NCBI GenBank assembly: GCA_010015585.1
Contig: ML975153.1
DNA length: 64,000 nucleotides
From: Eremomyces bilateralis CBS 781.70
Lineage: Eukaryota
Strand: one strand, 5' to 3'
The notes beneath the pieces are model-generated. The model did no database searches, was not told the DNA's origin, and saw only the letters and a program-made list of their open reading frames with translations. This document shows, one piece after another, positions 9,301-48,075 of this stretch. Every line of letters starts with the position of its first letter. Positions within the stretch are counted from its first letter, which is position 1. Both the position numbers and the translations under genes were made by a program.

Positions 9301-9905
9301 NNNNNNNNNNNNNNNNNNNNNNNNNNNNNNNNNNNNNNNNNNNNNNNNNNNNNNNNNNNNNNNNNNNNNNNNNNNNNNNNNNNNNNNNNNNNNNNNNNNN
9401 NNNNNNNNNNNNNNNNNNNNNNNNNNNNNNNNNNNNNNNNNNNNNNNNNNNNNNNNNNNNNNNNNNNNNNNNNNNNNNNNNNNNNNNNNNNNNNNNNNNN
9501 NNNNNNNNNNNNGTGCAAGTGATGGAGACTCGCAAGACGAAGCTGGGAGCAGACCATCCAGACACGCTGACCAGCATAGCCAATCTAGCGTCGACTTACA
9601 GGAATCAAGGTCGGTGGGATGCAGCGGAAGAGCTGGAGGTGCAAGTGATGGAGACTCGCAAAACGAAGCTGGGAGCGGACCATCCAGACACGCTGACCAG
9701 CATGAACAATCTTGCTTTCACGTGGAAAGCACAAGGTCGAGCTACAGAGGCGATACGTCTAATGACAGAATGTGTACAGCTTCGAGATCGAGTTCTAGGA
9801 ACTAGACATCCCCATTTCATTTCCTCCTCGAAAATATTGGCAGACTGGGAGGCAGACCGAATAGAAGAAAGCAGTGAGCAAGATGATACTGGTGCTATCA
9901 GGTAG
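6326..9905 (+). CDS. NLR-like protein: HET domain + NB-ARC + TPR repeats (TPR array broken by N-gaps)
   Basis: HET motifs YAILSHTWG, FWVDTCCIDK and RGWTLQEL; Walker A GLGGVGKT; Walker B WLVVFDNAD; LPLAIIQA; 42-aa TPR repeats (HPDTLTSMANLAST..NQGRWDAAEELEVQVM). Probable in-frame intron at 7077-7133. Confidence 0.9.
8440..9720 (+). repeat. Near-identical 126-bp TPR-coding tandem repeats
   Basis: Units such as ccagacacgctgaccagcatggccaatctggcgtcgact...gcagcggaagagctggaggtgcaagtgatgg recur on both sides of two assembly gaps. Confidence 0.9.
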
Positions 9906-13348: not shown

Positions 13349-14574
13349 TGAGTCCGGTTCGCCGACTCCAACGCCGGTGAAAGTGCCGGAGAGGCGAAGG
13401 CGTATGTGAGAGTAGAAGGAAAGGGAAGAGACACAAGATCTTTGGAGCAAATAACAGTCTTCGGTTGTATAGGAAGGACAGTGGGGAGAAGAGATAACGA
13501 TTCGAAGAACGTGAAGAGAAGGAGGGCGACGCCATTTTAAGAAAATGTCGCGGAATCTGTTGGAGAGCCATTTCGGGCCCTTCTTCTGGCCCTTTAGACG
13601 CCAGAGGATGAGCGAGTGAGAGTAGAGTTGGAAAGCAGAGTTAGAAAACGAAATACTGAAAACTAGACGTCGCATGCTCTAAGTCAGAGCGGAGCTAAAA
13701 TGGGACATAGACCAAAGTTGGTAGGGCATGACTCAGATCCATGTCAGTGAGATCCATGTCAGCGAGTAAGGGGAGTTCTCATTGGCGCTGGAGCATGGCA
13801 GATTTACCTCCAAAAACGGCGTCACAAACCTCCAAAAACGGACGTCAATCTGCCGTCTTTTTGTTTAAATAGGATTTACCAACAAATTCGCAATATCAGG
13901 AACTGTAAGAAACTAGACCGTTTCCAGCGGGTATCCACAGTTGTAAAACTGGGTTGTCAACGAGCTAACGTACTGTGGATCGGAGGTTGCAAAACCTCTC
14001 CAATGTCACAGATGCCTAGCTGCGGACCAATAGACAAGAACTTTGACTCGGAGTGTGTAGAATCTTGAACTTTTGCTGTAGACGAGGGGAGTGGCCACCA
14101 GCCCGTGGTTCATGGAAAGTGTCCATTGTTATAGACTCATACAGAAAGATTGCATATGAGATTGGTTCTACACGGGGAAAGCGAGAAATATGTAGCAAGG
14201 AATGAATCGAAGGCGGGAAGATGGCGACGAGAGGAACTGCAGGCATCACCGTCGACTGAAATCCAGATGCGAGAGGTCAAGAGAAACGGGAAGCGCAAGT
14301 TCCTGTTCGTACCTGACATGTACCGCTGTTCTCTCCGAAGTATATCCGGAGCGGACGGGACCACATCAACTTGAATATAGGGCATCCCGTCTGCTCTGCC
14401 GTACTCAAGCAGGTTAGAGACAGAATAGTACTACGGTGGGTGACCACGTGGGAAGTCTTCACAATAGTACCATCCGGTTCGCCTGCCATTGGCCGGGCGA
14501 GTTACCATACATACTTAGTCAACGCGTCGTTAGGAGATACTGTAATCAAAAAATTAGGGCTGCGTAGAGTACTG

Positions 14575-14836
14575 TGTCACAGAATATCTGTGTTTCTTGG
14601 CGTTTCCTCACGGCTTCATTCCGCATTCGATTCTATACACCTATTCTTTCCCTTTTTAGGGAAAAGATCACCATTGTAAACCATATAAAATAGCTGCAGG
14701 AACAGCCTGTTTTCGTAGGATCCGGCTCTTCAGGATCAAGGCCAATCTATCTACGCTCTTTTGGAATCTAACGGTGTTTTCCCACTGTGCCGCTGCATTA
14801 ATCACCTGATTGAGCGAAACCGCTATTTATCTCACA
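14575..14836 (+). mobile_element. Solo LTR with 5-bp TSD
   Basis: Starts TGTCACA and ends TCTCACA, flanked on both sides by TACTG. A second diverged copy lies inverted at 18069-18333. Confidence 0.85.
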
Positions 14837-14899
14837 TACTGCATGTAGTACTAATAGGAACAGGGCCTAAATCTAATGTTGCGAATTAGGATCATTTGC

Positions 14900-16560
14900 T
14901 TATTGATCATAGCTATCTGGCACCATTGTTCCAATCATCCACTTCCCATACACACTCTCTGTCGCGAGCTCTTTGATCTTCCCATCGATTAGATAATACA
15001 TCCGCACTGCTGTATTGCTCCATCCTGCCACACCTATCGGCCCATTCGGTGTGCTCGAGCCCGGAACCGATGACCCAAGATCTCCAACTGACCATTTGCT
15101 GTTCGAATACTGCACCTGCTGCATCTTAGTGCCGTCGAGGTAGAAGACTTGGACTGCATCGGGGGTATCAGACACCGCGACGCCAAGCGAGCGGGGGATT
15201 TCTCTGGGGATGTTCGCGGGGATTGTCTGGACTGTTTTAGGTTAGTTTCTTAAACCTTAACATCACGCCGACACGCAAAACTACAGAGTAGGGGTGGAAA
15301 AAGCACGATAGACCTTTTGTCCACGTTGAACTCGTCCAAACTGACGATGCCATCTGCAACCTTGTCTCCTCATTGAACCAAAACAGCCAAATCTCCCCCT
15401 TCACCATCTTCACTGCGACTGGCGACGCCAGATGTGCCTTTGCACCATTACTGATTTCCCGCGGCGCGCGCCATCCGCTCGTAGGGTCGTATGCGGCTTC
15501 TAGGACAGAGCCGTCGCTACCGACCATGTATTCGCGTAGGATGTTTAATGAGGGGGAAATGAGAGAGAGTCCGGCGCCCGCGATGAGGGCGGAGGAGGAC
15601 GGGATGGTGTTGCTCTCTGGGTTTGTGCAGAGCGTGCCGTTCCCGTGGCAGCGGAAGACGAGACTGGCGAGGGTGCTTTGCGAACGTGCCGTATAGTGCA
15701 TGCGGATTTCCTGTAACTCGAATGTTAATGTCCGTATACGCTAGAACCACGTAGGTCAAGTCTCACAAAGTAGTCGTTGGACTGCCATGTCGCAGCAGCA
15801 ATCGGAGTATTGTCAATAGCAGGCAACGACATGTTTAGTTTCATGGGATTCGCCCAGATGCTGGGCTTGTTGAAGTAGCCATGCATATACAGGTCCCCAT
15901 TGGATACCTGCCAGAAGATGAAGATTGTCGCATCAGATTGGGCGGCTACGATTGCGCGCATTGGCTTCGGTGCTGGGACACTGGTGTTTGTGTCGGGCGG
16001 GGAGTTAAGGTTATTGGTGGTTAATGGAGCTTGCCCATCTTGGCGATTCTGGTTATTGACAGCGTTAGTCGGGCTGTTTCATATCATACTGAAATCATAT
16101 CCTATGCTATGTTAGACTTACAGACTTGTGCCTGCTCCCAAGAATACCTCCCGCTACGCCTCCCACTATGGCCGCAACGAGCACGAAGAAAACCAGGCCA
16201 AAATATAATATCCTCCGGCGAATACCGCATACTCTCTTCTTATTCTCAGCCGGTATGACACTGGCGGCGTTGCTCTTAAGTGCATTAGCATCTACTTCAT
16301 GAACCGCTACCGGATACAAGCCATGCGACTCATGTTGATTGTTCGGGTCGGCGTGAGCATATTGACTTCGGTATTGGTCTTGAGACTCCGAATAATGTAC
16401 CTCGGGGTAGGAGTGGTCAAGATGATGCGAGTTCTGGAACGATTCCGGAAGCGGGTCAAGATCGTGCTCTACGGGCTGTGAATTTCCAATTATTTTTAAT
16501 TCCTGGATGTGTTAGCCACGAGCATAAAGTCAGACTCACAGTGCTTTGCAAGCCCGTCAT
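14900..16560 (-). CDS. Single-pass membrane protein with C-terminal fucose-lectin-like beta-propeller (multi-exon)
   Basis: Basic patch plus TM helix (KKRVCGIRRRILYFGLVFFVLVAAIVGGVAGGILG) followed by Trp-rich blade-like repeats (TPIAAATW, SPVAV...IWLFW, GPIGVAGW..AVRMYY). Exon joins are inferred and the start exon is uncertain. Confidence 0.6.
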
Positions 16561-17264
16561 GATTATATATGCGAGCACCGATCTTTCTACCCTTAGGTTA
16601 CCTCGCCATTTCTCAAGCCAGGTTGGGTTTCCATTCGATTGAAAACCAGAAATGGGCGGACAGATCAGGGTCTTATTAACGCAAAATCATATGCATTCTG
16701 ATCTGCAAGCCTCGTTCATCTGAGGATGCAGCCTATCGCGGATGGCTAGCGCATGTAAGAGCAACAATCGGTCACGGGGCTTTTGAGCGTGAAAACCACA
16801 CGCTAGGACGGGACTCGTCGCTAAATCGGGCCTTCCTCTAACTAATTCTAGTTGGTAAGACAAGGGTTATCATTAAGGTGGCCCCCCGATGCATACTATT
16901 TTTTCGCATAGGTTGTCACAGTAATGACTTGTCGCTACGACTTTGGCTGTTTTAGCCCTACGGCCTGAGGGTGATGGAGGCCTAAGCATACCTGCCGGAC
17001 CGGCCCGATATGAGACTCTATTCAGGCGAAAGACCTCGCTCGTACTGCTGGAGGGATCATATCCATACCGCATACTCTGGAACTAATTGAACTCCACAGC
17101 ACCGCGTATACGAACTTTCCTGGGGTGATTATAGTTTTTTTTTAGCATTATATCTATTCGCAGAGAACTTTTTAGCATGTTTACGTATGGAAACCATGGT
17201 ATTCTGTCACGGTTGTACTTTTCGTTGCTTCAAGGCGTTGATGGATTGATGCCTTATGGCTTGA

Positions 17265-17722
17265 CCACCAGGGGGACGAAATTCGTGGCGCGGAGGCCAA
17301 ACCCCAAATCCTCACCAAAATCGCTAACTTTGACCCCGAATATCTCCGCCAAACGAGGCTTATTTTCAATTCTGATCAATAGAATCAATTTGTACTTAAA
17401 GATATCCTTATAATAAAAGATGCAGAAAGTTACAGTTTAATTTGGCGGACTCAGCAAATTTTGGTAAGGTTTTATGGATACAAGTGTGCAATCCTCACCA
17501 AAATCTTGCCCGCCTCCTCCGCCAAAATTTGCTGAGTCCGCCAAATTAAACTGTAACTTTCTGCATCTTTTATTATAAGGATATCTTTTAAGTACAAATT
17601 GATTCTATTGATCAGAATTGAAAATAAGCCTCGTTTGGCGGAGATATTCGGGATCAAAGTTAGCGATTTTGGTGAGGATTTGGGGTTTGGCCTCCGCGCC
17701 ACGAATTTCGTCCCCCCGGTGG
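17265..17722. mobile_element. MITE / foldback element with ~200-bp terminal inverted repeats
   Basis: 17265-17464 is the near-perfect reverse complement of 17522-17722, around a ~57-bp spacer. No TSD identified. Confidence 0.85.
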
Positions 17723-18068
17723 ACGATCATAGCTCTAGTAGGATATAGTCGCATGTGTTGAGGCTGGGCGCTCCCTATGGGAGCGTCCTCAAACTGAGGA
17801 TGAGTAAGCTTCAGATGACGAACGGGGGGCCACATGGGCGACCTATTGGCCCGAACAGATGCATGAAGCAATCAATCAATCAACTAATTAGTGATGAGCC
17901 CCAATCACTCCTTCGGAGTTTTGGCGCGACCGTCCAATACAGGCGTGGCTAAACTATAAGTTTGCTTACCATCTCTTGGCATGGCTTCTCACGCCAAGAC
18001 ATACTGAGTGAGGCTTGGCCCATCATCCTTGTAGAGATGAGAATCAACGGATCCTATGTCTTGCATTT

Positions 18069-18333
18069 TGTGAGATAAATAGCGGTTTCGCTCAATCTGT
18101 TGGTTGGTGCAGCGATACAGTGGGAAAACACCATTAGATTCCAAAAGAGCGTAGAAAGATTGGCCTTGATCCTGAAGAGCAGGAATCCTACGAAAACAGG
18201 CCGTTCCTGCAGCTATTTTATATGGTTTATAATGGTGATCTATTCCCTAAAAAGGGAAAGAATAATTAGGGATAGAATCGAATACGGAACGAAGCCGCGG
18301 GGAAACGCCAAGAAACACAGATATTCTGTGACA
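18069..18333 (-). mobile_element. Solo LTR, diverged inverted copy of 14575-14836
   Basis: Reverse complement aligns over the full length (tgtcacagaatatctgtgtttcttggcgtttcc...gattgagcgaaaccgctatttatctcaca). Flanks differ (cattt/cctgc). Confidence 0.8.
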
Positions 18334-19028
18334 CCTGCCACCTTTGTCAACCGGACTCAGCCTTGCTGCAGTTTACACCCAAGCGGATGCCTGGGCAAAG
18401 TGGGCATGGCACTGATTTATGGACTAGCCTTCGGCCGGCATCAGGTCGATTCAACGTCCTTCGAGGATACCACACAATATCCCAATGACTCGACCGGGAA
18501 TATGTTAAGGACGACGCATATTTGGAGATTAGATTAACTATCGTCTTTGACTTTTTGCACTTCAGGATACTTCGTTAACTCGTATAAAAAAGCTACAATA
18601 TGTAGCCTTGGGTAGTGAGGCTGGTGGCGCATTGCCAGCTAGACATCTTGATACTTTAAAGTTTAAACCGAACAGCCTTTGCTGCGCTTTACACCGCGCT
18701 GAAAGCCTTGTCCAGCGGCCGAAGGCAAACCATATTGATTCTGCCGCGTCGTGGCAGAGCCTCACTTTTCCACCTCCCATAATTATGGCTTCACCGTATT
18801 TTCTCCTTCTCTTCTGTAAGCCTCCTTCGGTCAACTGTGAGCTCCATCTCAACAGATTCTGGTTGCTTGATAACGTCTTATATAGTCTGATACGATCAGG
18901 CCTCACTAATAACTACCTCGGATTAAAAAGAGCTACCTATATCTATCTCCGCACCTGCGAATTCAGGACCTTTCCTATCGACCTTACATTCTACCGTTTT
19001 TCGATATAACTTACCAAATTCTGAAACG

Positions 19029-19733
19029 ATTCCGAAGAGAGACCTCGAGCCTAATAGTGGTCAAGGGCAAGAAAAGAAGAGGAAAATAGACTACGAGGAT
19101 CATCAACTACCACCGTCTAATGCTTCTACACGAACGTTTGCCAACGAATGCTATACGATCGGTTGGATTTGCGCCCTCGTTACAAAGTATGTTGCCGCGC
19201 AGGCTTTCCTCGACGAAGAACACGACCGGGCAGAATTCGTCGATACTAACGATAACAATGACTACATATTGGGCAGAATGGGAGAACACAATGTTGTTAT
19301 TGCTGTTCTACCCGAGGGCGAGTACGGGCTGGCCTCCGCAGCAACCGTAGCGAGAGATATGCTGCATAGCTTTCCTAATGTCAGAATTGGCCTGATGGTC
19401 GGCATCGGTGGCGGCGCACCGAGTCGAAAGCATGATATCCGTCTAGGTGACGTAATCGTCAGTGTTTCCCGCGATGGGAACGGCGGTGTATTCCAGTACG
19501 ACTTCGGCAATACGATACAAGACCAAAGCTTTCGAACGACTGGTTACTTGAACCAGCCGCCCACAGTCCTCCGCACGGCGGTAAATGGGGTCAAGGCACA
19601 GCATGAGAAGAACGGGCACCAGTTTGAAGAAACAATCAACACTATTCTGGAGAAGAATCGGAGAATGAGGAAGAAGTATAGGCGTTCTGACCCAAGCAGT
19701 GACAGGCTGTACCTAAGCCATATCACCCATCCT
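19029..19733 (+). pseudogene. Truncated PNP_UDP_1 (Pfs) NLR effector-domain fragment
   Basis: [46 protein letters not shown]. The frame opens at ATT (no ATG) and homology stops abruptly at LSHITHP. Confidence 0.8.
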
Positions 19734-21003
19734 GGCATCTACTCGTGGACCCGAAGCAGAGTTTGACGACCCACGCCGCAAAGGGCTACTCCAAGCTTTT
19801 AAGGATGCTCTAGCTGTCGATACAATACAACCGACAGCTTGGGCGTGCCTCTGGCTTAGCGATATTGATGCCCTAACGGACCTTGTCTCCGATGCTAAAA
19901 TAAAGCCAGCCTATATCAAGGGTATTATTGGAGGCATAGAATCACAAGCAAGATTAGTTCCAACATGTATGTTGCTAGCCCTTATTCTGTTCGATTACTA
20001 ATATTATATATAGGGACCCAACGAAAGCGACCGGCCTCTGCTGCTTCTACTTTACAGCATCCGTCTACTCCACAGCAACCTTCTACTCCTCTTCAGCCGT
20101 CTCCGTTACAGCAGCCCCCTTCGGCACAGGGTAGTCGAGGACAAAAGCGAAATAGCAGTGGTAGGTCGTTGACTTCTCGCTCTAGACAAGAGCGAGATCT
20201 GGTTAGTCCATATTAAGAATATTTCTATTAGGGTTTTTACTAATATTCTATAGTGTCAAGAGAGAGATCAAAAAAGATGCATACTTACAAAATCCGGCGA
20301 GCCAAATGAAGTTGCGCATATCTACCCATACTCCATGCGATACGAGGACGGAACTACTAAACCGCTAGCGCTCTCTTTTTGGGATATTCTACGGGCATTC
20401 TGGTCCAAGGAGCGTATAGATGCTTGGTACAATACAATATTCCCAACCGGCACTGAGGTCTGTCAAAACCTCATATGCCTTGCTCCGAACGCACACGCAT
20501 ACTGGGGAGGAGCATATTTTGCACTCAAACCAATTAGGATTTCGGACGACAAGAAGCGTCTGGATATACAGTTTTTCTGGTTATCGTCAAGCGCACGCGT
20601 TCCCGAGATTAATATCCTTCAAGCTCCTTCGTTATGGGCCTTAGATCAAGGACCAAATCTAACAATGCTCTTCAATAATGAAACTCGAAAAGAAATTCGC
20701 TCTGGAGACGAAATCGCTCTTGAAACTGACGACCCGGTATTACGACCTCTGCCCGACTTTAGGTTATTGGAGATGCAATGGTTTTTGCACCGCGTTACAG
20801 CAATGAGCGGAGCCGCTGAACCCCAGAACGACTTCCACGATAATAGCGACGACGACATTACAATGACCTTGCAAGATCGATGGAACATGTATACGCAGGA
20901 TGATTGGGACATGGAGACAGAGGAAGGGCCTGATACATACGTAGAAACTCCGAGGGAGTGTTTCTCGGAAGAACGCAGCTTTGTGCAACTCAATGCTTAT
21001 TAA
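19734..21003 (+). CDS. HNH endonuclease-domain protein (HNH_2-like), probably 5'-truncated
   Basis: Exons [10 protein letters not shown]... / GTQRKRP... / [27 protein letters not shown]...[13 protein letters not shown]...FALKP...[26 protein letters not shown] introns at ~19967-20013 and ~20202-20253. Confidence 0.75.
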
Positions 21004-27765: not shown

Positions 27766-28419
27766 GGAGTGGTCACGATAGGATGGAGGGCCGGATGGGT
27801 ATCCGTTCGTCGACCCCTACTCATGCCTTCCCTGTGCAACCCATGAGTTTGTCGACAGTGTTTTTCTGGTTTCCGATGAGTATTATTATTTCGGAAAATA
27901 CGTATGGTCGAATGGGCAGAATTCAAGAATAATGGAGGATTCCTCCGCGATGGACGGGTGGGCTTCATGATGCGATGACATTTTTCACGGATGAAACGGT
28001 TCTAGATCGGAGACCGGGCTTTTCTTTGACTGAGACTGGCTTTGAGGTCGGAATTTACTCCTAGCTCTCTACCTATGATTCTCTAAATCTTCAAACCATG
28101 CGGTGGTGCTTGGAATGTGCGTGTTCAATGTCGTGTACTCGTTCGGTCAATGGTCTACAAATCAAGGACTGGGCTGGGGTATAACTCCAGTAACTCCGTA
28201 CCGTAAGACGGTAGTTCGTCAAAAATGACCATAAAATGATATTCTCATATTCAGGTTAAGGTAGGATCCTTGGCGGCTTGGCAATTTTTACTCCACCAAC
28301 ACGCGTCAGAACGCGCATTTCATCAATTATATCAACGCAGCAACCACCACGTTCATTACTTTATCAATTTAGGTATTTTTGAGGAGCTATTGACAGAAAA
28401 CACCTACTTATCTATTTAG

Positions 28420-29477
28420 ATGGTAGCCATGCCTCCTTTCCAGCTACCAGCTACCAGGTCTCAGATCTCAGATGCGACTTTACGCGACATAGAGTACCGT
28501 CTCAACGCTGGACAAGTCAATATGCACATAATCGCCGCAACGAGTATAAACAAGAATACAATGACGAGATTAAGGAAGCGATGGAGCGAGACTGGGACCA
28601 TTTACGCCATAAGGACGCGTCGCCCTGGTCCTAGACCTATNNNNNNNNNNNNNNNNNNNNNNNNNNNNNNNNNNNNNNNNNNNNNNNNNNNNNNNNNNNN
28701 NNNNNNNNNNNNNNNNNNNNNNNNNNNNNNNNNNNNNNNNNNNNNNNNNNNNNNNNNNNNNNNNNNNNNNNNNNNNNNNNNNNNNNNNNNNNNNNNNNNN
28801 NNNNNNNNNNNNNNNNNNNNNNNNNNNNNNNNNNNNNNNNNNNNNNNNNNNNNNNNNNNNNNNNNNNNNNNNNNNNNNNNNNNNNNNNNNNNNNNNNNNN
28901 NNNNNNNNNNNNNNNNNNNNNNNNNNNNNNNNNNNNNNNNNNNNNNNNNNNNNNNNNNNNNNNNNNNNNNNNNNNNNNNNNNNNNNNNNNNNNNNNNNNN
29001 NNNNNNNNNNNNNNNNNNNNNNNNNNNNNNNNNNNNNNNNNNNNNNNNNNGAGAGATGTTTAAACAATGGCTTCAGGAATGCGTTTTGCCGAAAATGAAT
29101 CCATTCCCTGGTCCGCGGTCTATTCTGATTATGGATAACTGCAGTACTCATCGCATTACGGTAGGTCTTCTGTCTTAGCCTGGCTATCATATAAACTTAC
29201 AAAGTAGTAGGGTATTCGCCAATTATGCGACGCTAAGGGTGTTCTTCTTAAATACTTCCCTCCATACTCGCCAGACTTAAATCCCATTGAGCCCTCGTTC
29301 CATGTCTTAAAAAGCTGGATGAAGCGGAATGATGATTTGCTTCCAGAGTTTAGGGAAGGCTATGAGGCGGCGTTTGTAGAGTTTCTAAAGGCAGCATGTA
29401 TTGCTTTTACTGACCGGACAAACCATCAAGCGCTGTGGCTGAAGTCTGGATATAATGTTCATGGTATTAATTTATAG
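28420..29477 (+). CDS. DD34E transposase (DDE_3 type; middle hidden by N-gap)
   Basis: ILIMDNCSTHRIT, intron 29161-29210, then GIRQLC...PPYSPDLNPIE, giving exactly 34 residues between the second D and E. HTH-like N-terminus. Confidence 0.85.
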
Positions 29478-29513
29478 ATAAATCCGAGACCGTTTAAAAG
29501 GCACGATGGTTTA

Positions 29514-31406
29514 CTAGCCACCCCCTCTAGTGACCGGAGGGTTAATAAACGACCGTTTAAAGCGTTCGAGTAGCTTCTTTGACCCGATGCTCTTAAGATA
29601 ACCATCCTTGATATTCAGCCTCTCAGCAAGACGGATAGGATTTCTGCGAGCCTCCAGATTCGCATCGCCTATGGTATAACCTTCATTATCAAGGTCCTCG
29701 CCTGCCTTGATCAACTCTTCCCTTTGCGCTTCAGGCCAGCCCTGACCTATCCACCTACAAAACTCCCGGACCGTGAAGCCGTCGACTGATGATACTGGAG
29801 AACTGGGAGGTACTGGAAATTGAGTTGCCATAGGTGTGGTAGGCGGCATACCCCAGGGCGTCATACCCATAGATGGGAAGCCGAAGTTGAAGTTCTGGGT
29901 AGGGCCTGGCTGTGATGATAGAGTCTCAGTGGAAGACCGCTTTGATTTGGAAGTATTTCGGGCCTCTTGTGCTTGTTTCTGTTGGTCCCACGTAAAAAGC
30001 TGTTGCTGGATAGGGGCAGGAGGTGTTTCGATACTGTGAAGAGTAGGAGATATGCGGATTAGTTCGGCCCAGTTCTTAGTAATGCGATCAGATATCTCCA
30101 TATGGCGATTTTCTGCCTGTGGGTTCGGCCAGCAATATAATGACCTTGCAGGACACCGATGTGAACCCAACGTGCACTTCCATCGCTGGGTAATCTCAGT
30201 CACAAGCGCACTCTTATCTGTATTGGCGGTGGTAATCGCTTGTACCGCCGGAGTAAGAGGATGCGCCAAAGATAGGGTACTGCCAGAAGATGCAGCAGTT
30301 GTCGATTGCCTGAGAATAGGGACTGGAGTCGGTAATGGCTCGAAAGTTGTGCCATATTTAACTTCAATGGTAATCTTGAGGTTTTGTAGGTTGAGTTCAT
30401 GATACTGATAGTGTAAAACAGCGCGGAATTCTTTAGCGTCGTTATCAGTACTAAGATCAATGTCGTTCTCAACCACAGGTTTCGTTCGGCTATCAATCAT
30501 TGCTGCAGAGAATGAAGCCTTCGTCTCATGATGATAGACGAGAGGTTCAAACCGCTTCATTGCTTGTGATTTGGCGATAGATTGCGCAACCTCCAGAATC
30601 TTCTCGCGATTGATATCCGCAAGGCTCGCTGCTGTCATTTTCTTCGGAAGTGCTAGCCCATCAAGGTATGGAATGAGCGTGAGGATGTTCTTCATAGTCT
30701 TGCCGAATAGATTGTATATCTTATTGGTTGATTGAGATGCTGAATTCGCAGCAGGGCTGGCAATAGGCGATGATATCCCAGGTTGAGATCCGGTACCAAA
30801 CCCTTGGACATTTGCTAAAACAGAACCTCGTTTCAGACGCTTGCGAGGTAACTCAACAACACCATCAGTAGAATCTACCTCATCCTGGCCGTCGCTACTA
30901 TCGTCGTTATCCGAAATGATAAAGGTACGCCCCCTGGCAGGAGTCGGCGTGGACGGTGGAAAAGAGACTGCTTTCGTTTGCTTGCGTTTCTTCGCTGCTG
31001 CTACAGGCTGAGCCTTCGTAGGCCCTGCCCTCGTTGTGGTCTTCGCGGATTTCGTAGTCTTCGAACTAGCAGCTCTGCCGTTATCACTAGTAGAGCTACC
31101 TTTTGAATTCGACTTTGTTGCCTTTTTTATAGGTCGACGACCAACCGCTGGTGCTAGTCTTGCTTGCACTACGTTATCTGGTGTGTCTTGATGTAGAGGA
31201 TCCGCGAAACCGACTCGCATCTGCCTGCGTCTGAGTCTACGTCGTCGAGAATATGGTGTATCCGTTTCTATATCGGATTTCAATTCGGATTCACTATGAC
31301 GAGGACTTGATGACGGGATATTGCGGTTTGATTGATCGCGCGTACGGGCCATTCCTAACAGAGTTTCGACTGCAGCTTCTTCTCCAGAGTCGTATTCGTT
31401 GTTCAT
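29514..31406 (-). CDS. 630-aa transposon-borne protein of unknown function
   Basis: Intact ORF wholly inside the TIRs. Basic NLS-like N-terminal half, a Cys/His cluster (WKC..SHRC..YCW..RH..W) and a helical C-terminal domain. Confidence 0.7.
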   Translation of the reverse strand: MNNEYDSGEEAAVETLLGMARTRDQSNRNIPSSSPRHSESELKSDIETDTPYSRRRRLRRRQMRVGFADPLHQDTPDNVVQARLAPAVGRRPIKKATKSNSKGSSTSDNGRAASSKTTKSAKTTTRAGPTKAQPVAAAKKRKQTKAVSFPPSTPTPARGRTFIISDNDDSSDGQDEVDSTDGVVELPRKRLKRGSVLANVQGFGTGSQPGISSPIASPAANSASQSTNKIYNLFGKTMKNILTLIPYLDGLALPKKMTAASLADINREKILEVAQSIAKSQAMKRFEPLVYHHETKASFSAAMIDSRTKPVVENDIDLSTDNDAKEFRAVLHYQYHELNLQNLKITIEVKYGTTFEPLPTPVPILRQSTTAASSGSTLSLAHPLTPAVQAITTANTDKSALVTEITQRWKCTLGSHRCPARSLYCWPNPQAENRHMEISDRITKNWAELIRISPTLHSIETPPAPIQQQLFTWDQQKQAQEARNTSKSKRSSTETLSSQPGPTQNFNFGFPSMGMTPWGMPPTTPMATQFPVPPSSPVSSVDGFTVREFCRWIGQGWPEAQREELIKAGEDLDNEGYTIGDANLEARRNPIRLAERLNIKDGYLKSIGSKKLLERFKRSFINPPVTRGGG

Positions 31407-32080
31407 CGATCGAGATAGTGCTTTGGAATATGCGATACGACGCGAGCCTGACGCGATTTAGTTCAACAAGTTCTGTAACTATAGTATTAAAACATACAGC
31501 GTTACGACAGCAGAAAATAAAGATTTCAACAAATGTTTGAAGCCTAAGAGCAATGATTATGGGCTAGATAAAAGCGCGATATTGATATAATTGATAAAAG
31601 CGCGTTCTGACGCGTGTTGGTGGAGTAAAAATTGCCAAGCCGCCAAGGATCCTACCTTAACCTGAATATGAGAATATGGCAATACGGCTCCGAGGAGATG
31701 CAAGAAGCCGACGGACGGTCCGCAGACTCATACCCTACCATCCCCGATTGTGTTTGTCCACGACTATGTCTCTTCAAGAGGATTCTAGCTGCCACTGGAT
31801 AGACATATGGAGTTCCACTGCAGCTGCCTGCGCGTGATTACCGCTGGTCGTCTCGTGCCATCACCGCTACTTCACAACACAACCGCAAAGAGCCGCTTTA
31901 AATTCAGCCCCACCCTTCAGTAAACCTTCTCAAGACCTGCAAAGAGGAGAAAAAGACACGAAGCAACGAATATTCAAACATAGAAAAATAACCAGTCAAT
32001 AACAAGTCCTCAATGTGAGTTCGACTAGCTGCCCTCCTGTTCATCCTTCCAGTGAAATCAGTGCCTAGCAACCACCCACG

Positions 32081-36970: not shown

Positions 36971-38073
36971 GGTATAACGATTATCCCACTTGAAAGCGGT
37001 GTTAGGTCTGACTGAGGAAGGTAAAAAAATTGAGGAAAGTCGAAGTGGATACAATTTTGAAATGTTGTGGCATTGGACCATCCTGAGGACGATGAAAAGT
37101 CTCTATCATGTGTTTTTCATCAATTTCCAATCATTCACCTGCAATCAAGGCTAATAAGGAGAGTGAATTGAATTCGGCTTTTTGGCCGGACTAAATAAAG
37201 CTGCTCAACCGACACTGATAACTGTGGGAAAGCAGCACCTACTAGTTGCCTATTTTTACATATGCCAACTGTCATCCAGTAGCCTCTTCTTGTTCTGAAC
37301 CGGCGACTAGCTGCCAAAGCCACTGTGGCCTTGAGCATGTACATAGCAGGAGGATTATCTATAGTACAATGAGCGGTCATTTGGAAGGCACTGCGGAATG
37401 GCGACATGAGTTAGCGCCTGGTCATATGGACATCGAAATGGAAGGCACTTGTGGAAGTTGTCAGATTTTCCATTCTGTTACTGAATTCAGTGAATTTTGT
37501 ACAAGGGGCCGCTCTGGGTCGAGGGTGAGGAGCAAATATTGCACATACCGCAAACATGCCACGAAAGACACCCATCTTTTGCTTCAGAGGGGGAAATGGC
37601 AGGGAAGGTTCCATCCTAAGAATCATTATCGTGAATCGGCTCCTATGTTGGGGCAACAATGCATCTGAAATAGGAGGCATTGACGGTCCCTTGCCATGTG
37701 TCTTTGAAGTCCTGTAGCGGCAGGATTCCGTATTTCAAAGAATCAAAGTCGAAGCCATGATACCCATTCAGGTGGATTTGAAACCTTCAGTCATCCCGAT
37801 ATGAGGTGCTGGCTCATATCGCGTTGTATTCAGACATGCCATTATTGAGACACGTGGAATGAAATATCGTTGCGCTCTTCTCTAGCGTATACATGTTACT
37901 AATATCCACTCGCTAGGAATCTTAATATATGACATTTCGTATAATAAATAAAGATTGTAGCAATCAGTGGATGAACGGATCTGACGTTGCTCTAATAAAG
38001 ATATGCAGCTGACGTAACCCTCAGCCGCTGCTCCACTCCCCCCTGTCTTGATCTCCAGCCTCTACACATGCTA

Positions 38074-39935
38074 AGACAGGACCCCCGGTTTGTAACCACC
38101 CCACTTTGTAACCAACTAAACCCCTTCAATCTGGAGATGAGACAGATCAATAAAATACATGTACCACCACACAATCATGCTGTAACTGTGTCGAAATCCC
38201 TCCAGTTAATGAAGAGGCTATAAAGCTCGCGATTCAGGCTTATATTAATAGAGAATTTGACTCTATACATAAGTGCGCGGACCAGTACGGTGTTACCTAC
38301 TCCACGCTCCAAAAGCGCCTCCAAAACGACCGCCAATCGCACCAAATTGGTGCTCAAAAGCTCCAGAAGCTGTCTCCTGTACAAGAACGATATCTAGCGG
38401 AATGGATAGCCCTGGAAGACCGGGCTTCGAATGCCCCCTCCCACGGCAGGGTTCGTCAAATGGCAGAAGCAATTGCCCGCGAAAATGGTGACCACACGCC
38501 TTGCGGGAAGAACTGGGTGGACGGATTCCTCAAGCGAAACCCCCATATAAAAACTATGGTGGGCAAATCAATCGAAGCTTCCCGCGTAAATTGTTCGTCC
38601 AAGGAAATCATAGCGGCCTGGTTCAACCTTCTCCAGAGCCTGATCGACCAGTTTCACATCAAAACGGAGAATATCTGGAATATCGACGAGCACGGGATTG
38701 CGCTTGGGTGCGGCGTAAATGGGCGTGTCTTAGCACCAATACAAGAGAAAAAGATGGGAAAGAACAGCAGGAAAAAGACCTATATCAAGACTCCGGAGGA
38801 CCGCGAATGGGTCTCCGTCATTGAGGCCATTTCAGCCGTTGGCCGCGCGATCTCTCCGCTCATCACCTTCAAGGGCAAAAACCTCCAATCTACGTGGTTC
38901 CCTGCGGATCTCTCGAGCATGAAGGACTGGCATTGGACAGTTTCAGAGAACGCCTGGACGTCAAACGAAATCGGGCTCAAATGGTTGGAGAAGAAGTTCC
39001 TCCCGGAGACCGCACCAAAAGACCGTACGGAATGGCGTCTCCTAATTTGCGATGGGCACGGATCGCACGCGACGGTCGAGTTCATGAAGATGTGCAAGGA
39101 TAATAAGGTAATTGTCCTATATCTCCCTCCCCATTGCTCCCATCTGCTTCAGCCCCTAGATGTCGCTTGTTTTTCGGCCCTGAAGAGTAAATATCGCAAG
39201 GAATTAACCCAATTGAGCTCCCTCGACGACTCTGCCCCAGTTAAGAAGCATAATTTTATAAACATTTATAATAAATCCCGCATTGAAGCTTTGATAAACC
39301 ATAATATCCGCGCTGGGTTCAGAGGCACCGGAATCTGCCCATTCAACCCACACAAAGTATTAAATAGCACCCAATTAAACGAGAACCATACTATACAACG
39401 TCATGTGACCCCAGAGCCCATATATGATTATATATTTAATACACCCAAAGGCCCAAAAGACGTGTATACGGGGAAAAAGTTTGAGGACATGCCTGGACGG
39501 GATTTCAGGGGTTTACAGGGGAAATTGGCCAAGGCACTCTCAAAGAAGAACGTCGAAATCGCAGCACTGAAAGCGCAAGTTGCAAAGCTCGAAAAATCAC
39601 TGGAAGACATAGGCGGATTGTCTAAGAAAAGGAAAAGAGTCCAAGTCGACCAAAATGAGCGATTTGCGACGATTGATCAGATTGTTGCTGCGCAAGAAGA
39701 AGCAAGACAAGCGGAGCTGAAGGAGGCGAAGAAGAAGCCCAAATTTGACGCGCAAAAAATTTCGGACGAGCTGCAAAAAGCAGAATTCGAATCACTTTGC
39801 TCACAGTTTCAGATATAATATATAAATTTCAATATTGGTGGAGTTATTATACAGAATCTATAGTCCTCTGTTGTTGGTGTTGCTGCGTGTGAAGTTGTTA
39901 CAAATCGGGGTGGTTACAAACCGGGGATCCTGTCT
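38074..39935 (+). mobile_element. Fot1/pogo DNA transposon, copy 1 (1862 bp; transposase start codon mutated ATG>ATC)
   Basis: TIR agacaggacccccggtttgtaaccacccc; TA TSD; DDE_1 motifs WNIDEHG, LLICDGHGSH and LQPLDV. Confidence 0.95.
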
Positions 39936-40415
39936 TACAGTACATAAAGTGCTGGAATTACCGGGAGTTTTATTCTGCTGTACATCCATCGCACTCAGTG
40001 GGGATTGGGCAGCTTACTTGGGATTCACCTTGTGATAAATATAAGGTATCAAATTAGGAGCCACGGAGCCTACCCCTGACTGAATGGTTAAATCGATCAA
40101 CAAATGATTTATATCGATGGTGGGATGGAGTAAGAGCTTGTGATGAAATACCGTGTGTGGGTTCGGAATTGACAGACAGAAGTGATCGTCGCTCTTGGAT
40201 TGATTCTTATACTTGTCTATCAACAACTATCAAGGCGAAACTTGCTGCATATCCAAAGGGGGCGCTGTATAGACCATGCATTCCTTGACACGGTAGTCAC
40301 AACTTCGAAAACCCCTTGCCACACTTTCCGCATGAGATTCCTGGGAGAGTCCTGTTGAAAATGGTTACTCTGGGTCTGGTTAGTCCTCAGAAGCTGGACC
40401 AGCATAGTCATCGGC

Positions 40416-42050
40416 TTACCAGTTTGGCATGTCCCCTCCGATCTCCTCCTCTTCCTCGTCAACTTTTATCGCAGTTCCATAGCCAGGACTCTGTTTCTTG
40501 ACCCGAGTGGAACGTCGGGTTGCGCCTGCAGACCCTTCCACGCCCGTCTTCCGTGCTTTCGATCCTTCAGCCGCGAAGCTACTCTTCCTTTTTTTTGACG
40601 CCCTTGCAATGGCGGTCCGGGGTTGCAAACTGCTCGAACTAGCGACCACCTTCCCTTTCCTCCGCTTCCGTCCGGGGTCCGACAAGTCGGCGAGTTCCAC
40701 AAGCTCGGCTGCGGCCAGAATTGTACCCATAAGTTCCTCATGCTTCATGGAATCTGCAGTGTCCACCGATTCCGGTGGTTCAGGTGCTTCTTCGTCGGGA
40801 ATAGAACCAAGATGGTGAGTAACTTGGTCTTCTACCCACTCGCGGATCTTGTAAGTTTTAAACGAACCGGGTGACAGTATTTCGGGGGACCCCGCCTGTC
40901 CCTCTTCAAGGGGGCTGTGACGGCGAGTCTTTATACGTGTAGACACAGGAGAAACTACCGGTTTTGCGTGGCCGCTAGGATCCGGGGTATCGAGCAAAGA
41001 ATCGTGGGTAGTAGGCCCGAAAGGGGTTTGAGAGCTGGCAAGCGCGCGAACGCCCGGTGTCCTGACCTCCGAGGTAGAGAAATTGCCTCGCTGGTTGGGG
41101 ATCTGCGCGTGGATGGGCAGGGGAGTACTGCGGATATTGGACTCTGGCTGGCGGGGGGGTAAATGAGGCACATATGAGTTGTGGATAGCAGAAGGCTGGG
41201 TAGACGAAGGCTGCGACTGGTTTTGCTGTCCAGAGAACACATCCGGGGAAGTGCTGAAGAACATAGTGGGCGGGGTGTAGGCTGCGAAGCTGTAGTGCGG
41301 ACCGTGTTGAGGAGCCGGCGGAGGTAGATAGTCCTGAGGCCTCATAGGATCGTACAAGTAGTAAAAAGGCCCATAAGAAATGGGAGACTGAAACCCCTGA
41401 GGAGCAAAGTGATTTTGAATGCCTGGCGCAGGGACAGTAGGCATAGAGGCAGACACGCCAGACGGATGAACGGCCGACGTAGGGGCAATCGGCACAGACT
41501 GGGGCCCACTAGGCAGATGAACAACTGACGTAGGGGTAGCGGGAATAGAGGCAGACACGCCGGTAGGATGAATGACCGATGCAGGGGCAATATGCACGGA
41601 CTGAGGACCGCCAGGCGGATGAACGGCCGACCCAGGGACAGCGGGAATATAGGCAGACACAGGCGGATGAACAACCGACGGAGGGAGAACAGGCGTAGAT
41701 CCAGACACGCCAGGCGGATGGACGGGCGGCGCAGGAGCAATAGGCGCAAACATGGACAAGCCAGGCGGATGGACAGCCGGCGCAGGGACAATAGGCGTAG
41801 ACTGAGACATGCCAGGCAGATGAACTCCTGGCGGAGAGGTGCCAGGCGGAGGGTTGCCATGCGGAAGAACTCTCGACAGGGAGGTACCAGGCGGAGGGTT
41901 TCCAGGAGGAAGGTTTCCGGGCGAAAGGTTTCCAGGCGGAAGGTTTCCAGGCGGAAGGTTGCCCGACGGAGGTGGTGCTAAGGTAAATAAGTTCACTGTG
42001 TACCATGTACTGAATAGGATTTGAGGGAGTTTACCTGCAGTATTGTCCAT
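40416..42050 (-). CDS. Proline-rich low-complexity protein of unknown function
   Basis: 544-aa ORF with PPGNL and VHPPG repeats and a basic C-terminal region. May be spliced at the ends. Confidence 0.45.
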   Translation of the reverse strand: MDNTAGKLPQILFSTWYTVNLFTLAPPPSGNLPPGNLPPGNLSPGNLPPGNPPPGTSLSRVLPHGNPPPGTSPPGVHLPGMSQSTPIVPAPAVHPPGLSMFAPIAPAPPVHPPGVSGSTPVLPPSVVHPPVSAYIPAVPGSAVHPPGGPQSVHIAPASVIHPTGVSASIPATPTSVVHLPSGPQSVPIAPTSAVHPSGVSASMPTVPAPGIQNHFAPQGFQSPISYGPFYYLYDPMRPQDYLPPPAPQHGPHYSFAAYTPPTMFFSTSPDVFSGQQNQSQPSSTQPSAIHNSYVPHLPPRQPESNIRSTPLPIHAQIPNQRGNFSTSEVRTPGVRALASSQTPFGPTTHDSLLDTPDPSGHAKPVVSPVSTRIKTRRHSPLEEGQAGSPEILSPGSFKTYKIREWVEDQVTHHLGSIPDEEAPEPPESVDTADSMKHEELMGTILAAAELVELADLSDPGRKRRKGKVVASSSSLQPRTAIARASKKRKSSFAAEGSKARKTGVEGSAGATRRSTRVKKQSPGYGTAIKVDEEEEEIGGDMPNW

Positions 42051-43723
42051 GGTGAATGGTCGGGAATCAGACTACGAAGGAAAATGTAGAAGCAATCGAG
42101 AGGAAGACAACTACTATGAGAGAATTAAGAGGAACAGATCGACTGTGAGAGAATGGAAAGGAAGAGAATGGAGATCTGACTGGGGGGTTCTGCCGCCCGA
42201 TTTGATGGACCTGAAAGCGGAAGTCACGATAGACCGAAACAGCAGGCACGACGTTACAATAGAATTTACCTTGAATCTCCTCCACGTCACATGCACAGAC
42301 AATTGCCGCTGTCTACGTCGTCCGAAGCAGTCGAAAGAGAACCGAGACGCACTGAATTGGATATACCGGTAACCATCTCTAGGTTTAATGACGCGGATGT
42401 GAAGGTCCTCATGGAACTAACAGACCATCCCACACTACACTGCATGTCCTTGTACCAATATCGAAGCTGCTAATGGAACCCATGGTCGACTCCGGGCAGG
42501 TAATTTTTGGAGGAGCCGTCCACCACGCGGTATAGACCGTATCGAAGTACGGGCTGCACGAGGAAGGCCGAGATCCGATGCATCTGACCCCCGCACAACT
42601 GAACTTTGAGTTGGCGACTAACGAGGCATACGACTTCAACCGGTTCGCAAATGAAATCCTGATGAACGGAAAGGGATAAAAGAGAGGCGTTGGAGGATGG
42701 CCATCGAGCATGTCAAGCAGTACGTGACACTATGCTAATGAAATCAGGACTGTGAAAAGTATGCGAACGTAGATGATTTTTTGACCATCGTCGGGTAGGA
42801 ACATGCGAAAGAGGCAAAAAGATAGTCTAAGTGCGGTACGTATCCAAGAGTTCTAAATCGGACTTGTCCAAGGATTGAGACTCGCGGATGCTAGAGTTAT
42901 GCCACGGCTCAACCAAGGAGACGCCCCGATGCCAGCAATGCGATAAGAGAGAAAGCTGCAGATGTGGTCAAAGAAGATGCCGTGTATTGAGTCTGTAGAG
43001 ATTTGGTATCATCCGGGTGGAAGAAATTGAGGGCCCTTCACCTTTGACGTACTCCCGTAGCCGACGAGATATCTCGATGAAGTGGTCGTGATATTGGAAC
43101 ATGTCGTTGAGAAGAATAGGAGGGTAAAATGGTAGGTGCTGCATCCCGTACCTCATGGCTCATGCCGTCATGCGATACCTATATGCATCTGGAATTAATT
43201 TCTGTAAGAGATAGATCAGTAATATCATTGAGAATTTCGGCGGATACCGAGTTCCGTTAGTTGGAAGGGATAAATCCAAATTGACTTTTGGAATACAAAT
43301 GTGCTTGAAGTTTTCTGTCAAAGTTCGTGTCATTATCTAACTTAGTTAATGGATCTAACTTAACTAAGTTAGTTAAGTTAAGTTAGTTACCAATTAGTTA
43401 CCACCAAATATCTGATTAGTTACCTTATTTCCGGCCCGGGTACTAGTCTCCTCCCGCCCTCCACCACACGGTCCACTCTACCAAGTTCCAACTCCTGTCC
43501 CGCAAACTAACAAATAGTTAAGACGTCCGTTGTATCCCCGCATTTGACCTCCTCTCTCGCTTTCTCAGACCCGAGGACTGCTCGCATATCTGACTATCCT
43601 CGAGAGCCTCGGCCGTAAAAGTGGTCGATGCCAGCAATAAAACATCATGATATTGATTCTATCCATTACTAACATACAGCATTAATTTCTAGCACAGTGA
43701 AACAAGCCAAATACGCCTTCACC

Positions 43724-45606
43724 ATGCCCAACCGTCCCATCCGCATCGTCGGCATTTCCGGCAGCGCTAGCGACCGTCGCGATGCGATGGCTGCCGTCGC
43801 TGCCTCGTATCCCTCGGATCCCATCGACGTGATCATTGGTGACTGGATGTCCGAAGGAAATATGACCTCCCGCGCCGCGTCCAAGGTCGACGGCACCGGC
43901 GACACGTTCGAGACGACGTTCCTCGAAGCATTCGAGCCGGCGATTGAGAACATCGCGAAACATAAGATCAAAGTGGCGGTCAACGCCGGGGCGACGGGTA
44001 CGCTGGCGTTACGTGACGTCGTGGTGAAGATGGTGGAGGAGCGGAAGCTAGACCTCAAGGTGGCGTGGGTGGAGGGAGACGAGTGTCTGGAGGCGGTGAC
44101 GCAGGGCCTCCAGGGCGGAAGCAAGTTCGAGAATATCTGCACGGGGGAAGAGCTAGGGAACTGGAAGTTCGAGCCGATTTTCGCGCAGGCGTATCTCGGT
44201 GGGTTGGGAATCGCGGAGGCGTTCCGAAAGGGCGCGGACATTGTGATCTGTGGACGGGTCAGCGACGCGTCGCCTGTTATCGGAGCCGCATACTGGTGGC
44301 ACAATTGGAAGCGTGACAATTTGGATCAACTGGCCAATGTCCTTGTCGGTGGCCATCTGATCGAATGCTCGTCCTATGTCTGTGGCGGTAACTTCAGCGG
44401 CTTCAAAGTGCTCGAAGGGTCTACCGGCTGGGACGACATTGGCTACCCAATCGCCGAGATCTCGTCTTCCGGCGAAGTCATCATCACGAAGACCGCGGGC
44501 TCCAAAGGCGCCGTCACTGTTGACACATGCAGTTCTCAGCTCCTCTACGAAATCCAAGGTCCGTGGTATTACAACTCCGACGTCACCGCCATCCTTTCGA
44601 ACCTTTACTTCGAGCACGTCGGCGCGAATCGCGTCGCACTCCGCGGCGTAGAGTCTGCCCCTCCGCCACCCACCACTAAAGTCGGCATCACCGCTCGAGG
44701 CGGTTTCCAAGCCGAAGTCCATTGGTCCCTCGTGGGTCTCGACATCCCCGAAAAGTCACGGATGCTCGAATCCCAAATCCGCCGCCTTCTCGCCCCGTAC
44801 TCCTCCAAGTTCTCTCTCCTGAAGTTCACCACCAACGGCGTCGCCGACCCCGATGCCTCCAACCAATCCGCCGCGACCGTCGACTTCCGTGTCGTCGCCC
44901 AAGCCCCCAACGCTGACGACCTCTCCCCTCAGAAGTTCGTCCGACCGTGCCTCGACTGTATGATGTCCGCCCCGCCCGGCGCCACCACGCACTTCGACCT
45001 ACGCACCGGCTTCCCCCGGCCCATCTACGAATACTACGTGACGCTGCTCCCGCAGTCGGCGGTGCGCCACCAGGTGCATTTCCACACGGGAGAGAGCGCG
45101 GAGATCCCGCCGCCGCCAGTGACACGCACGTGGGATCGCCAGCAGCCGAGCGAGCCGGCGACGGCGATACCGGTGGATTTGCGAAGCTTTGGGGAGACGA
45201 CGCGGGGGCCGCTAGGGTGGGTGGTGCATGGGCGGAGCGGGGATAAGGGGAGCAATGCTAATGTTGGGTTCTGGGTGCGGCATGCGGATGAGTATTCGTG
45301 GTTGCGGACGCTATTGAACGTGGAGAAGATCCAAGAGCTATTAGGGGACGAGTACAAGCAGAGGAACAAAATCGTAAGTGTCGACGTGGAGAATCGTCTG
45401 GAGTTATAGCATGCTAACCGTTGGGCTACCAGGACCGATTTGAGCTCCCGAACGGACGTGCGGTTCACTTCTTGCTGCATGATCATCTGGACCGCGGGTT
45501 CAGCTGCTCTAGCACGTACGATGTGCTCGGGAAGAACGTTGCTGAGTACCTTCGCAATCGACATATCGATATTCCCGTGAAGTTCTTGGCGCGGAAAAAG
45601 CTGTGA
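43724..45606 (+). CDS. DUF1446 / acyclic terpene utilisation AtuA-like protein
   Basis: IIGDWMSE, GADIVICGRVSDAS, GHLIECS...GGNF, QLLYEIQG, HGRSGDKG.NANVG and D.LGKN.AE. Intron at 45374-45432. Confidence 0.9.
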
Positions 45607-45671
45607 ATGTACAGTACATGTCATCTGGGAGAATTGGCTGGGATTAGAATAAAGGGTTGCCATTGCTGATA

Positions 45672-47533: not shown

Positions 47534-48075
47534 TATTTGCTTTTTTTCAAATGAAAACCGCCCATATAGGTTGACGCATAGCATACGCTGTGATGGCGGA
47601 CATGATGCGATAGGATACATAGTAAGTTGATAACGCCTCTAACCATGGCAAGGAGATTTACACTCGGATCTTTACACGTAATTCCCGGGGTGAGGCAGCA
47701 AGGCGACAAGACAGCAACCCGTTTTCTCCCAGCCCGTTGTCGATCTCCTGCGCAATTGACGATCGGTACGGGATCAGGCCTATTGATGGATTTAACCCTT
47801 TACTTCAGCTATTGTTCTCTTTCTTTCCTATCCATCCTCAATTTTCTTGCAACGACTATACCTTGACCCATCGGACCATCTCGAGTTCTCGAATCTCCAA
47901 GCATCCAGCGCAGTGGTAATTACATAGTAGACATGAGCTCACCCTGCTGATGGAACGAGCCCCTGACCGAACCCCGGACCTGCATGGGACTACACTGGAT
48001 TGGCTTCGTTTCCGACTCCGACGTTACTCCCCGCCCGTTTCGTCTAAAACGTAGTCTTTTTCTTTTCGCTTCTCG

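Follow-up and report, generated by a model that had tools for sequence, protein, structure and literature searches.

A clade of fungal DD34E Tc1-type transposons in Eremomyces bilateralis with a probable dedicated accessory gene of an unnamed family

The window analysed here, a 64,000-nucleotide stretch of contig ML975153.1 of Eremomyces bilateralis CBS 781.70 (GCA_010015585.1), contains a 3.43-kb DNA transposon at positions 28242-31674, flanked by TA on both sides. The element carries a transposase gene and, on the opposite strand, a second open reading frame of 630 codons (hereafter ORF2). The original prediction from the sequence was that ORF2 is a dedicated accessory gene defining a two-gene Tc1 family, and not chance cargo. 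Our results support this idea and broaden it. The element probably belongs to a fungal clade of DD34E IS630/Tc1-type transposons that has kept a dedicated second gene, of an unnamed family, for a long time, and a chromatin-acting accessory protein is the function that we favour. Strict linkage to one transposase clade and the shared splits of the trees of the two genes carry this conclusion.

ORF2 is linked to one transposase clade

The E. bilateralis genome gave 77 matches to the transposase domain DDE_3, at 75 places. ORF2-family sequence lies tail-to-tail with the transposase at 12 of the 12 places of one clade and at 0 of the 63 other DDE_3 places, three of which had less than 1.4 kb of readable downstream DNA. 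Conserved ORF2 domains are matched at nine clade places, at two of them just by a short tail bordering a gap or the end of a contig; at the remaining three, which lie next to gaps or deletions, the ORF2 DNA is exclusively 5' or internal. The 12 places represent four divergent families: F1, which is the family of the window; F2 (C2; 4.5 kb, with a 168-bp terminal inverted repeat, TIR); F3, with a 139-bp TIR and several copies; and F4 (C15), in which no TIR was found and the 5' end of the transposase is lost. The other DDE_3 elements with pairable TIRs are mostly 1.2-1.75 kb long and leave no room for a second gene. A single-copy host gene of the ORF2 family was not found in this genome. A transposase is missing beside two ORF2 pieces (C1:490k and C52); both are damaged, and one keeps the TIR of its family.

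The same two-gene layout, with stop codons about 40 nt apart, is present at L135 (G001:C9), on an unrelated fungal-type contig. This 414-kb contig belongs to a GTDB prokaryote assembly, has genes of fungal type on it (the ORF2 transposon and, by eye, a HET/NACHT/WD40-like gene), and is probably fungal contamination of that assembly. Distant homologues arranged tail-to-tail with related DD34E transposases, as expected of a two-gene family, are present in three further families of the same genome and in one outside fungal contig. Hidden Markov models built without sequences from E. bilateralis or L135 recovered a similar set of places and no new one.

In the transposase tree, the ORF2-bearing transposases are located on one side of a branch (support 93/94, 96% of bootstrap trees), and 0 of 500 shuffles were as clustered. 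For this tree, which excluded any locus that had gaps or at least two stops, 38 segments were kept from 87 loci (21 rows after dereplication), and long branches are present. The ORF2 tree splits in the same way as the transposase tree, into (F2,F3) and (F4,L135), and the transposon-borne ORF2 copies span its deepest branches.

Structure and copies of the window element

The features of the element are as follows (positions in the window; X1 is a sequencing run guessed to be RNA, X2 a DNA run, and C22 and C3 are other copies of the family).

28240..28241, no strand: TA target-site duplication, left (flank comparison)
28242..28335, plus strand: left TIR, 94 nt, with an ACGCGT hexamer (inverted-repeat comparison)
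28373..28419, plus strand: 47-nt GT-AG intron in the transposase 5' untranslated region (UTR); the spliced contig has C3 alleles
28420..29477, plus strand: DD34E IS630/Tc1-type transposase gene with a run of N inside; stop at 29475-77; 342 aa in copy C22
29161..29210, plus strand: transposase intron, 50 nt (C22 reading, X1 splice)
29478..29513, no strand: gap between the convergent stop codons, 36 nt
29514..31406, minus strand: ORF2, 630 aa, intact; open throughout, no Pfam family
31446..31497, minus strand: intron of about 50 nt, GT-AG, in the ORF2 5' UTR; spliced in X1, unspliced in X2
31582..31674, minus strand: right TIR, 93 nt; likely ORF2 promoter region
31675..31676, no strand: TA target-site duplication, right

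The predicted architecture was confirmed. The TIRs, expected to be about 93 bp, are 94 and 93 nt long and 98% alike; the stop codons of the two genes, given as about 36 nt apart, are separated by exactly 36 nt; ORF2 is uninterrupted on the minus strand; and the two genes fill the element. The plus-strand DD34E transposase could be verified in part. A run of 410 N breaks the window transposase and covers its first catalytic D, and the intactness of this copy is unreadable. Its length suggests an assembly gap: the 410 N correspond to 431 sequenced bases in C22, and a run of 270 N corresponds to 303 bases in the comparison for C17. In the N-free copy C22, a transposase of 342 aa with DD34E spacing is obtained once a 50-nt GT-AG intron is removed, and its exon 1 matches DDE_3 (Pfam, E 5.9e-11). 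The transposases of the clade have 324-342 aa, with helix-turn-helix (HTH) domains and DDE_3. HTH_33, HTH_23 and HTH_29 were above the Pfam cut-off in the sister transposases, and the F1 transposase gave weak HTH_32/33 matches only (E 0.045 and 0.13).

F1 has four copies in the genome, at different sites: C5 (the window copy), C17, C22 and C3. C17 and C22 are 99% identical to C5, and C3 is 95% identical, with deletions and without the right end. TA is present at 7 of the 7 intact ends, a call that rests on the flanks, with no empty site among the sequences compared, and the outer flanks are different in every copy. F1 is a recently mobile transposon family. All four copies carry ORF2 sequence: C5 and C17 have it intact, C22 with a frameshift and C3 in decayed form. 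Within the window element, no internal TIRs or target-site duplication were found around ORF2, which is not nested in another transposable element, and an Rfam search over the element found no RNA family. C22 (L011) contains a nested insertion of about 400 bp, about 100 bp inside its left end, with an 8-bp duplication and TAGGGC...GCCCTA ends, a hAT-like miniature inverted-repeat transposable element.

The hexamer ACGCGT occurs in both F1 TIRs (28301-28306 and 31610-31615) and at both F2 ends (L061), with 0.04 expected per 250 nt, and is absent from the F3 ends. We take this hexamer to be MCB-like, and its positions suggest that transcription of these elements may be linked to the cell cycle.

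Selection and expression

ORF2 is under purifying selection between lineages. In the comparison of F4 with L135, the ORF2 products are 57% identical, with nonsynonymous and synonymous differences (pN and pS) of 0.275 and 0.79, the latter saturated; the transposases are 76% identical, with pN 0.147 and pS 0.81. A role of ORF2 as protection from repeat-induced point mutation (RIP) was considered and set aside. No RIP-like spectrum was seen in the F1 copies, but this is uninformative about ORF2, because the window's pogo copies, which have a single gene, are likewise 99% identical to each other.

Expression was examined with X1 and X2; no run is recorded as RNA. X1 has three canonical splice joints that are missing in X2, and the flanks of the element are uncovered by X1. 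Two of the joints are on the transposase strand, one being the intron predicted beforehand in C22, and the third reads CT..AC, which places it on the minus strand as the intron of the ORF2 5' UTR. The splice in the ORF2 UTR comes from a full-length copy, because C3 ends before this intron. In addition, one gap-free X1 contig of 2025 nt covers ORF2. This shows that ORF2 is transcribed from the right end and spliced in an RNA-like run, from source copies with C22/C17 alleles. Expression of ORF2 is thereby supported to the extent that X1 is RNA, and not for the window copy itself, whose alleles are not those of the transcripts. A database gene model of 407 aa, P0002, which diverges after residue 400, was rejected, as an RNA-like contig spans that point gap-free. 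The decayed copy C3 (L013, G000:C3) is located inside a 4.7-kb X1 contig that is spliced in the transposase UTR, which suggests a host-transposon chimeric transcript.

The ORF2 protein

The following parts of ORF2 were distinguished.

29544..29777, minus strand: five-helix SAM/HhH-like domain, residues ~544-621 (predicted local distance difference test, pLDDT, 85-91; best Z 5.4, homologue model 6.7)
29967..30209, minus strand: conserved Cys3His module, residues ~400-480 (C411, C418, C425, H435, P463), putatively zinc-binding
30342..30725, minus strand: probable beta-grasp (ubiquitin-like) domain, residues ~228-355, from a homologue model
31206..31217, minus strand: RVGF at residues 64-67, an RVxF-type motif within the N-terminus, which is basic and disordered; in 4/4 long-N-terminus homologues

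Pfam gave no family for the window ORF2 at E<=10 (no Myb, no RuvC/TnpB, no SAM), and its single match among the homologues was DUF7924, in an unrelated N-terminal stretch of P0008. The Cys/His cluster that had been noticed in the sequence is present, as are the basic tracts, and all eight aligned homologues share C411, C418, C425 and H435. Invariant columns are limited to C, C, C, H, P and A, with no catalytic pattern and no conserved acidic triad, and from this alignment ORF2 appears to be non-catalytic. An ESM Atlas search with the Cys/His module gave no usable match in named clusters.

The structure model of residues 300-630, from six sequences, has a mean pLDDT of 66 and a predicted TM-score of 0.32, and contains two confident domains, the Cys3His module and the five-helix C-terminal domain. 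The small helical C-terminus of the original prediction is modelled, and its likeness to SAM is more tentative: SAM chains top both structure lists at Z 4-6.7, tied with HhH-type domains, and these values are below the reliable level of the comparison tool. A SAM cluster of the ESM Atlas scored 0.82 for ORF2, which we regard as a lead only. The N-terminal domain of the homologue model matched beta-grasp folds with Z up to 5.8 (Foldseek E 0.004), and the window ORF2 probably has such a domain, as judged from that model. Foldseek rows for superantigens and streptokinase were dismissed, as they show no more than the widespread beta-grasp shape. An RVxF-type motif is present in the first 70 residues of F1, P0004, F2 and F3, the four homologues with a readable long basic N-terminus, at a shuffle frequency of 0.2-0.8% each. 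RVxF is an established docking motif for the phosphatase PP1.

Homologues of ORF2

A search of 1.84 billion representatives with ORF2 gave nine matches: one near-self (99% identical), five unnamed proteins close to ORF2 (E from 4e-38 to 3e-7), a further two that scored more weakly and a repetitive sequence that was a false match. Profile searching extended the family to hypothetical proteins of about 430 aa in Fusarium, Purpureocillium, Trichoderma, Podospora and others. Profile alignment shows that this distant group is related to the close one (hhalign probability 98%, E 2.6e-13, 246 columns). Several distant members are multi-copy within an assembly or lie on contigs of 3-5 kb, as is usual with repeats, and one Trichoderma assembly has four tags of distant homologues. 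Unnamed Basidiomycota and Ascomycota clusters of the ESM Atlas scored 0.91 against residues 225-630 of ORF2; as a lead, this hints that basidiomycetes may have the family too.

Word-based searches with ORF2 225-630 and with alignment A6 returned almost nothing beyond self matches. A degenerate-motif scan of metagenome contigs gave seven loci, 0/7 with a convincing ORF2, and so yielded no DNA context for the close homologues P0003-P0007. On viral contigs, no distant-group ORF2 was found, and 0 of 79 IS630-like loci had an ORF2 neighbour.

Comparison with known elements

Tc1/mariner elements are textbook one-gene transposons. The window element departs from this usual content by its second gene of 630 aa, conserved across the clade. 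In fungi, Tc1/mariner elements are described as the most abundant DNA transposons in the passage available from PMC5751038. The premise that they encode a transposase only holds as a rule, with exceptions in the ciliate TBE/Tec elements and the Fanzor-carrying Mariners, as far as the available passages describe them. Our literature search found no account of a two-gene fungal Tc1 clade or of the ORF2 family; Repbase reports and subscription papers may record such elements. The passages available from sources including PMC6431247, PMC9977792, PMC11544213, PMC3599309 and PMC13728883, and likewise bioRxiv 10.1101/2021.09.26.461848, PMC13004909 and PMC3203195, describe no two-gene fungal Tc1 clade.

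The window family shares short TIRs, TA, HTH plus DDE_3 and the DD34E signature with the fungal Tc1/IS630 DD34E elements (the Ant1 group, TcMar-Ant1 in RepeatMasker, and impala). The Ant1 group is set apart by description, in that the literature passages available mention no conserved second gene. Ant1 (~4.8 kb) and hupfer (~3.3 kb) are reportedly oversized, and both may be unrecognised members of this clade. An Ant1-like ORF of 981 bp is given in a passage of PMC3111232, and Trem elements are 1.9-2.3 kb long, some of them split into two to three ORFs (passage of PMC2836289).

The ciliate TBE/Tec elements, in the passages available from PMC7325037, resemble the window element in having extra ORFs in elements of the Tc1/mariner group. 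TBE carries a zinc-finger protein and an ORF of unknown nature under purifying selection. They differ in having three ORFs and in being confined to ciliates, and Tec has 700-bp TIRs and a recombinase. Mariner/Tc1 elements carrying Fanzor likewise hold a second gene inside the element, also in fungi (passage of PMC10530073). In contrast to Fanzor, ORF2 has no RuvC/TnpB Pfam match and no acidic triad, and the window element has no Rfam RNA.

Two-gene DDE elements are known from MuDR (mudrA/mudrB), whose genes are convergent and transcribed from the TIRs, and from PIF/Harbinger, which pairs a DDE_Tnp_4 transposase with a Myb/SANT protein as its second ORF; VANDAL elements are of the Mutator-like superfamily. 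MuDR and PIF/Harbinger belong to different transposase superfamilies, whereas the present clade has DDE_3, and its ORF2 gives no Myb/SANT Pfam match. VANC, the protein of VANDAL elements, is the functional model favoured here, as a family-specific accessory protein on a DNA transposon (passage of PMC6719617). The difference is that VANDAL is a plant element and VANC depends on tandem motifs, according to the same passage, and no such array was found in the window element. A review passage describes VANC as perhaps the most convincing case of counter-silencing by a transposon.

Possible functions of ORF2

In the mechanism that we propose, promoters in the TIRs would drive the convergent transposase and ORF2 transcripts, and the transposase would cut and paste the element with its own HTH domains. 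ORF2 would be a nuclear, non-catalytic adaptor. Its Cys3His module and basic tracts would bind DNA or chromatin, its SAM/HhH-like and beta-grasp domains would oligomerise or bind partners, and the RVxF motif of the long forms would recruit PP1. Since HTH domains are retained in the transposases themselves, ORF2 is unlikely to be the subunit that recognises the TIRs; a role in chromatin or expression is ranked first because the transposase can bind its ends alone. Granted that ORF2 is an accessory factor, the leading candidate, at not quite an even chance, is that it acts on the chromatin or expression of the element, keeping the family active or tuning it in a VANC-like manner. A MudrB-like helper in transposition or target capture would come next as a plausible second, and a dampener of transposition is the least probable of the three.

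Several observations weigh against these conclusions. Most F2-F4 copies are damaged. DNA context outside the own genome comes from one genome only, with none for about 60 database homologues. Single-gene DDE_3 families are far more numerous in the same genome, and because they reach many more copies, ORF2 is not needed for the spread of Tc1 elements here. The constraint that argues against neutral evolution between lineages does not extend to the F1 copies, where pN/pS of ORF2 is about 1 on few changes (C5 versus C17: 4 synonymous, 12 nonsynonymous), in copies too alike for selection to be detectable. The ORF2 contig of X1 is a mosaic, mostly of C22 and C17 alleles, and in the transposase contigs with a splice the alleles are those of C3, the decayed copy, not of the window copy. 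Foldseek comparison of the models of ORF2 and its homologue with the PDB and viral libraries gave no match at E<=0.001. The definition of the RVxF pattern is post hoc, and the short distant forms of ORF2 lack the motif.

A variant of the accessory reading makes ORF2 an indispensable partner in excision or integration, which would bind the transposase or the ends, as in the Harbinger ORF2/MudrB type. Strict co-inheritance, the matching tree splits and a convergent layout with TIR promoters like that of MuDR are all consistent with such a partner, and the non-TA flanks of F2/F3 described below hint at an unusual target capture in the clade. On the other hand, the transposases retain their own HTH domains, and the window family, with its ORF2, still uses ordinary TA sites. 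We regard this variant as possible but on the unlikely side. It is improbable that ORF2 is kept as a selfish addiction or drive factor, or for a benefit to the host, rather than for transposition. Long-term conservation without a recognisable enzyme or transposition domain would fit this explanation, as would the weak beta-grasp scores of the homologue model; however, these matches concern a common fold, the two genes fill the element and leave no antidote partner gene inside the TIRs, and copies with a broken ORF2 persist. Passive copying of captured host cargo or of a nested-element remnant is very improbable and largely refuted: the pN/pS of the near-identical copies, the broken ORF2 in 2/4 F1 copies and the two orphan pieces would agree with it, but it requires four independent captures of one gene family in the same position and orientation, in a genome that holds no host copy, and it is contradicted by pN far below pS between lineages, by the lack of internal TIRs or a duplication, and by the damage to both orphan pieces, one with its family TIR.

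Returning to the chromatin-acting accessory protein, a bolder form of this reading can be stated, which we consider unlikely as a whole. ORF2 would be the first counter-silencing or chromatin-targeting factor encoded by a fungal transposon, polymerising on its own elements through the SAM-like and beta-grasp domains, with long forms hijacking host PP1 through RVxF, and the clade would be an old, ascomycete-wide, partly TA-free two-gene branch of Tc1/mariner. If this is true, the ORF2 family takes in many genes of 430 aa that are annotated as "hypothetical" in Fusarium, Trichoderma and Podospora. More generally, a clade keeping an accessory gene across deep divergence is a candidate for how transposons counter or tune host silencing, for which examples are scarce, and "hypothetical proteins" widespread in ascomycete annotations would be reassigned to transposons. 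As the element is small and recently mobile, with intact ORF2 copies, the role of ORF2 is directly testable.

Target sites of the sister families

In F2/F3, 5 of 5 TIR pairs are flanked by identical non-TA dinucleotides (AT twice, CT twice, AA once), which is uncommon in Tc1/mariner elements.

L061:2784-7309, L062:2565-6232, L063:2140-6161, L068:3990-6291, L116:519-7124: F2/F3 TIR pairs with non-TA flanks

These flanks suggest that some of the clade duplicates 2 bp with no preference for TA, whereas the window family uses TA. Such duplications bear on the rules of transposon classification and on targeting in transposon tools. Separately, three small single-gene DDE_3 elements (L073:2587-4044, L146:1970-3445 and L147:1905-3468) have apparent 3-4 bp non-TA flank repeats (GCAG, GTT and TAG).

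Other features of the window

Two pogo/Fot1-type elements (DDE_1), 99% identical and inverted, are present at 38072-47535 and enclose 5.7 kb in a composite-transposon-like arrangement; the enclosed DNA has two genes, one of the AtuA family. An element with inverted ends of about 260 bp and no transposase ORF is located at 14574-18334. It holds a gene that appears to be spliced and has a hydrophobic segment (by eye, lectin-like), and a near-palindromic insertion of 460 bp is nested in it at 17265-17722. Finally, the stretches 6251-9700, 18927-21000 and 53317-54543 hold a 99-bp repeat array and genes that are NLR-like or related to these: HET/NB-ARC/TPR, which has repeats and N gaps, PNP_UDP and HNH_2.

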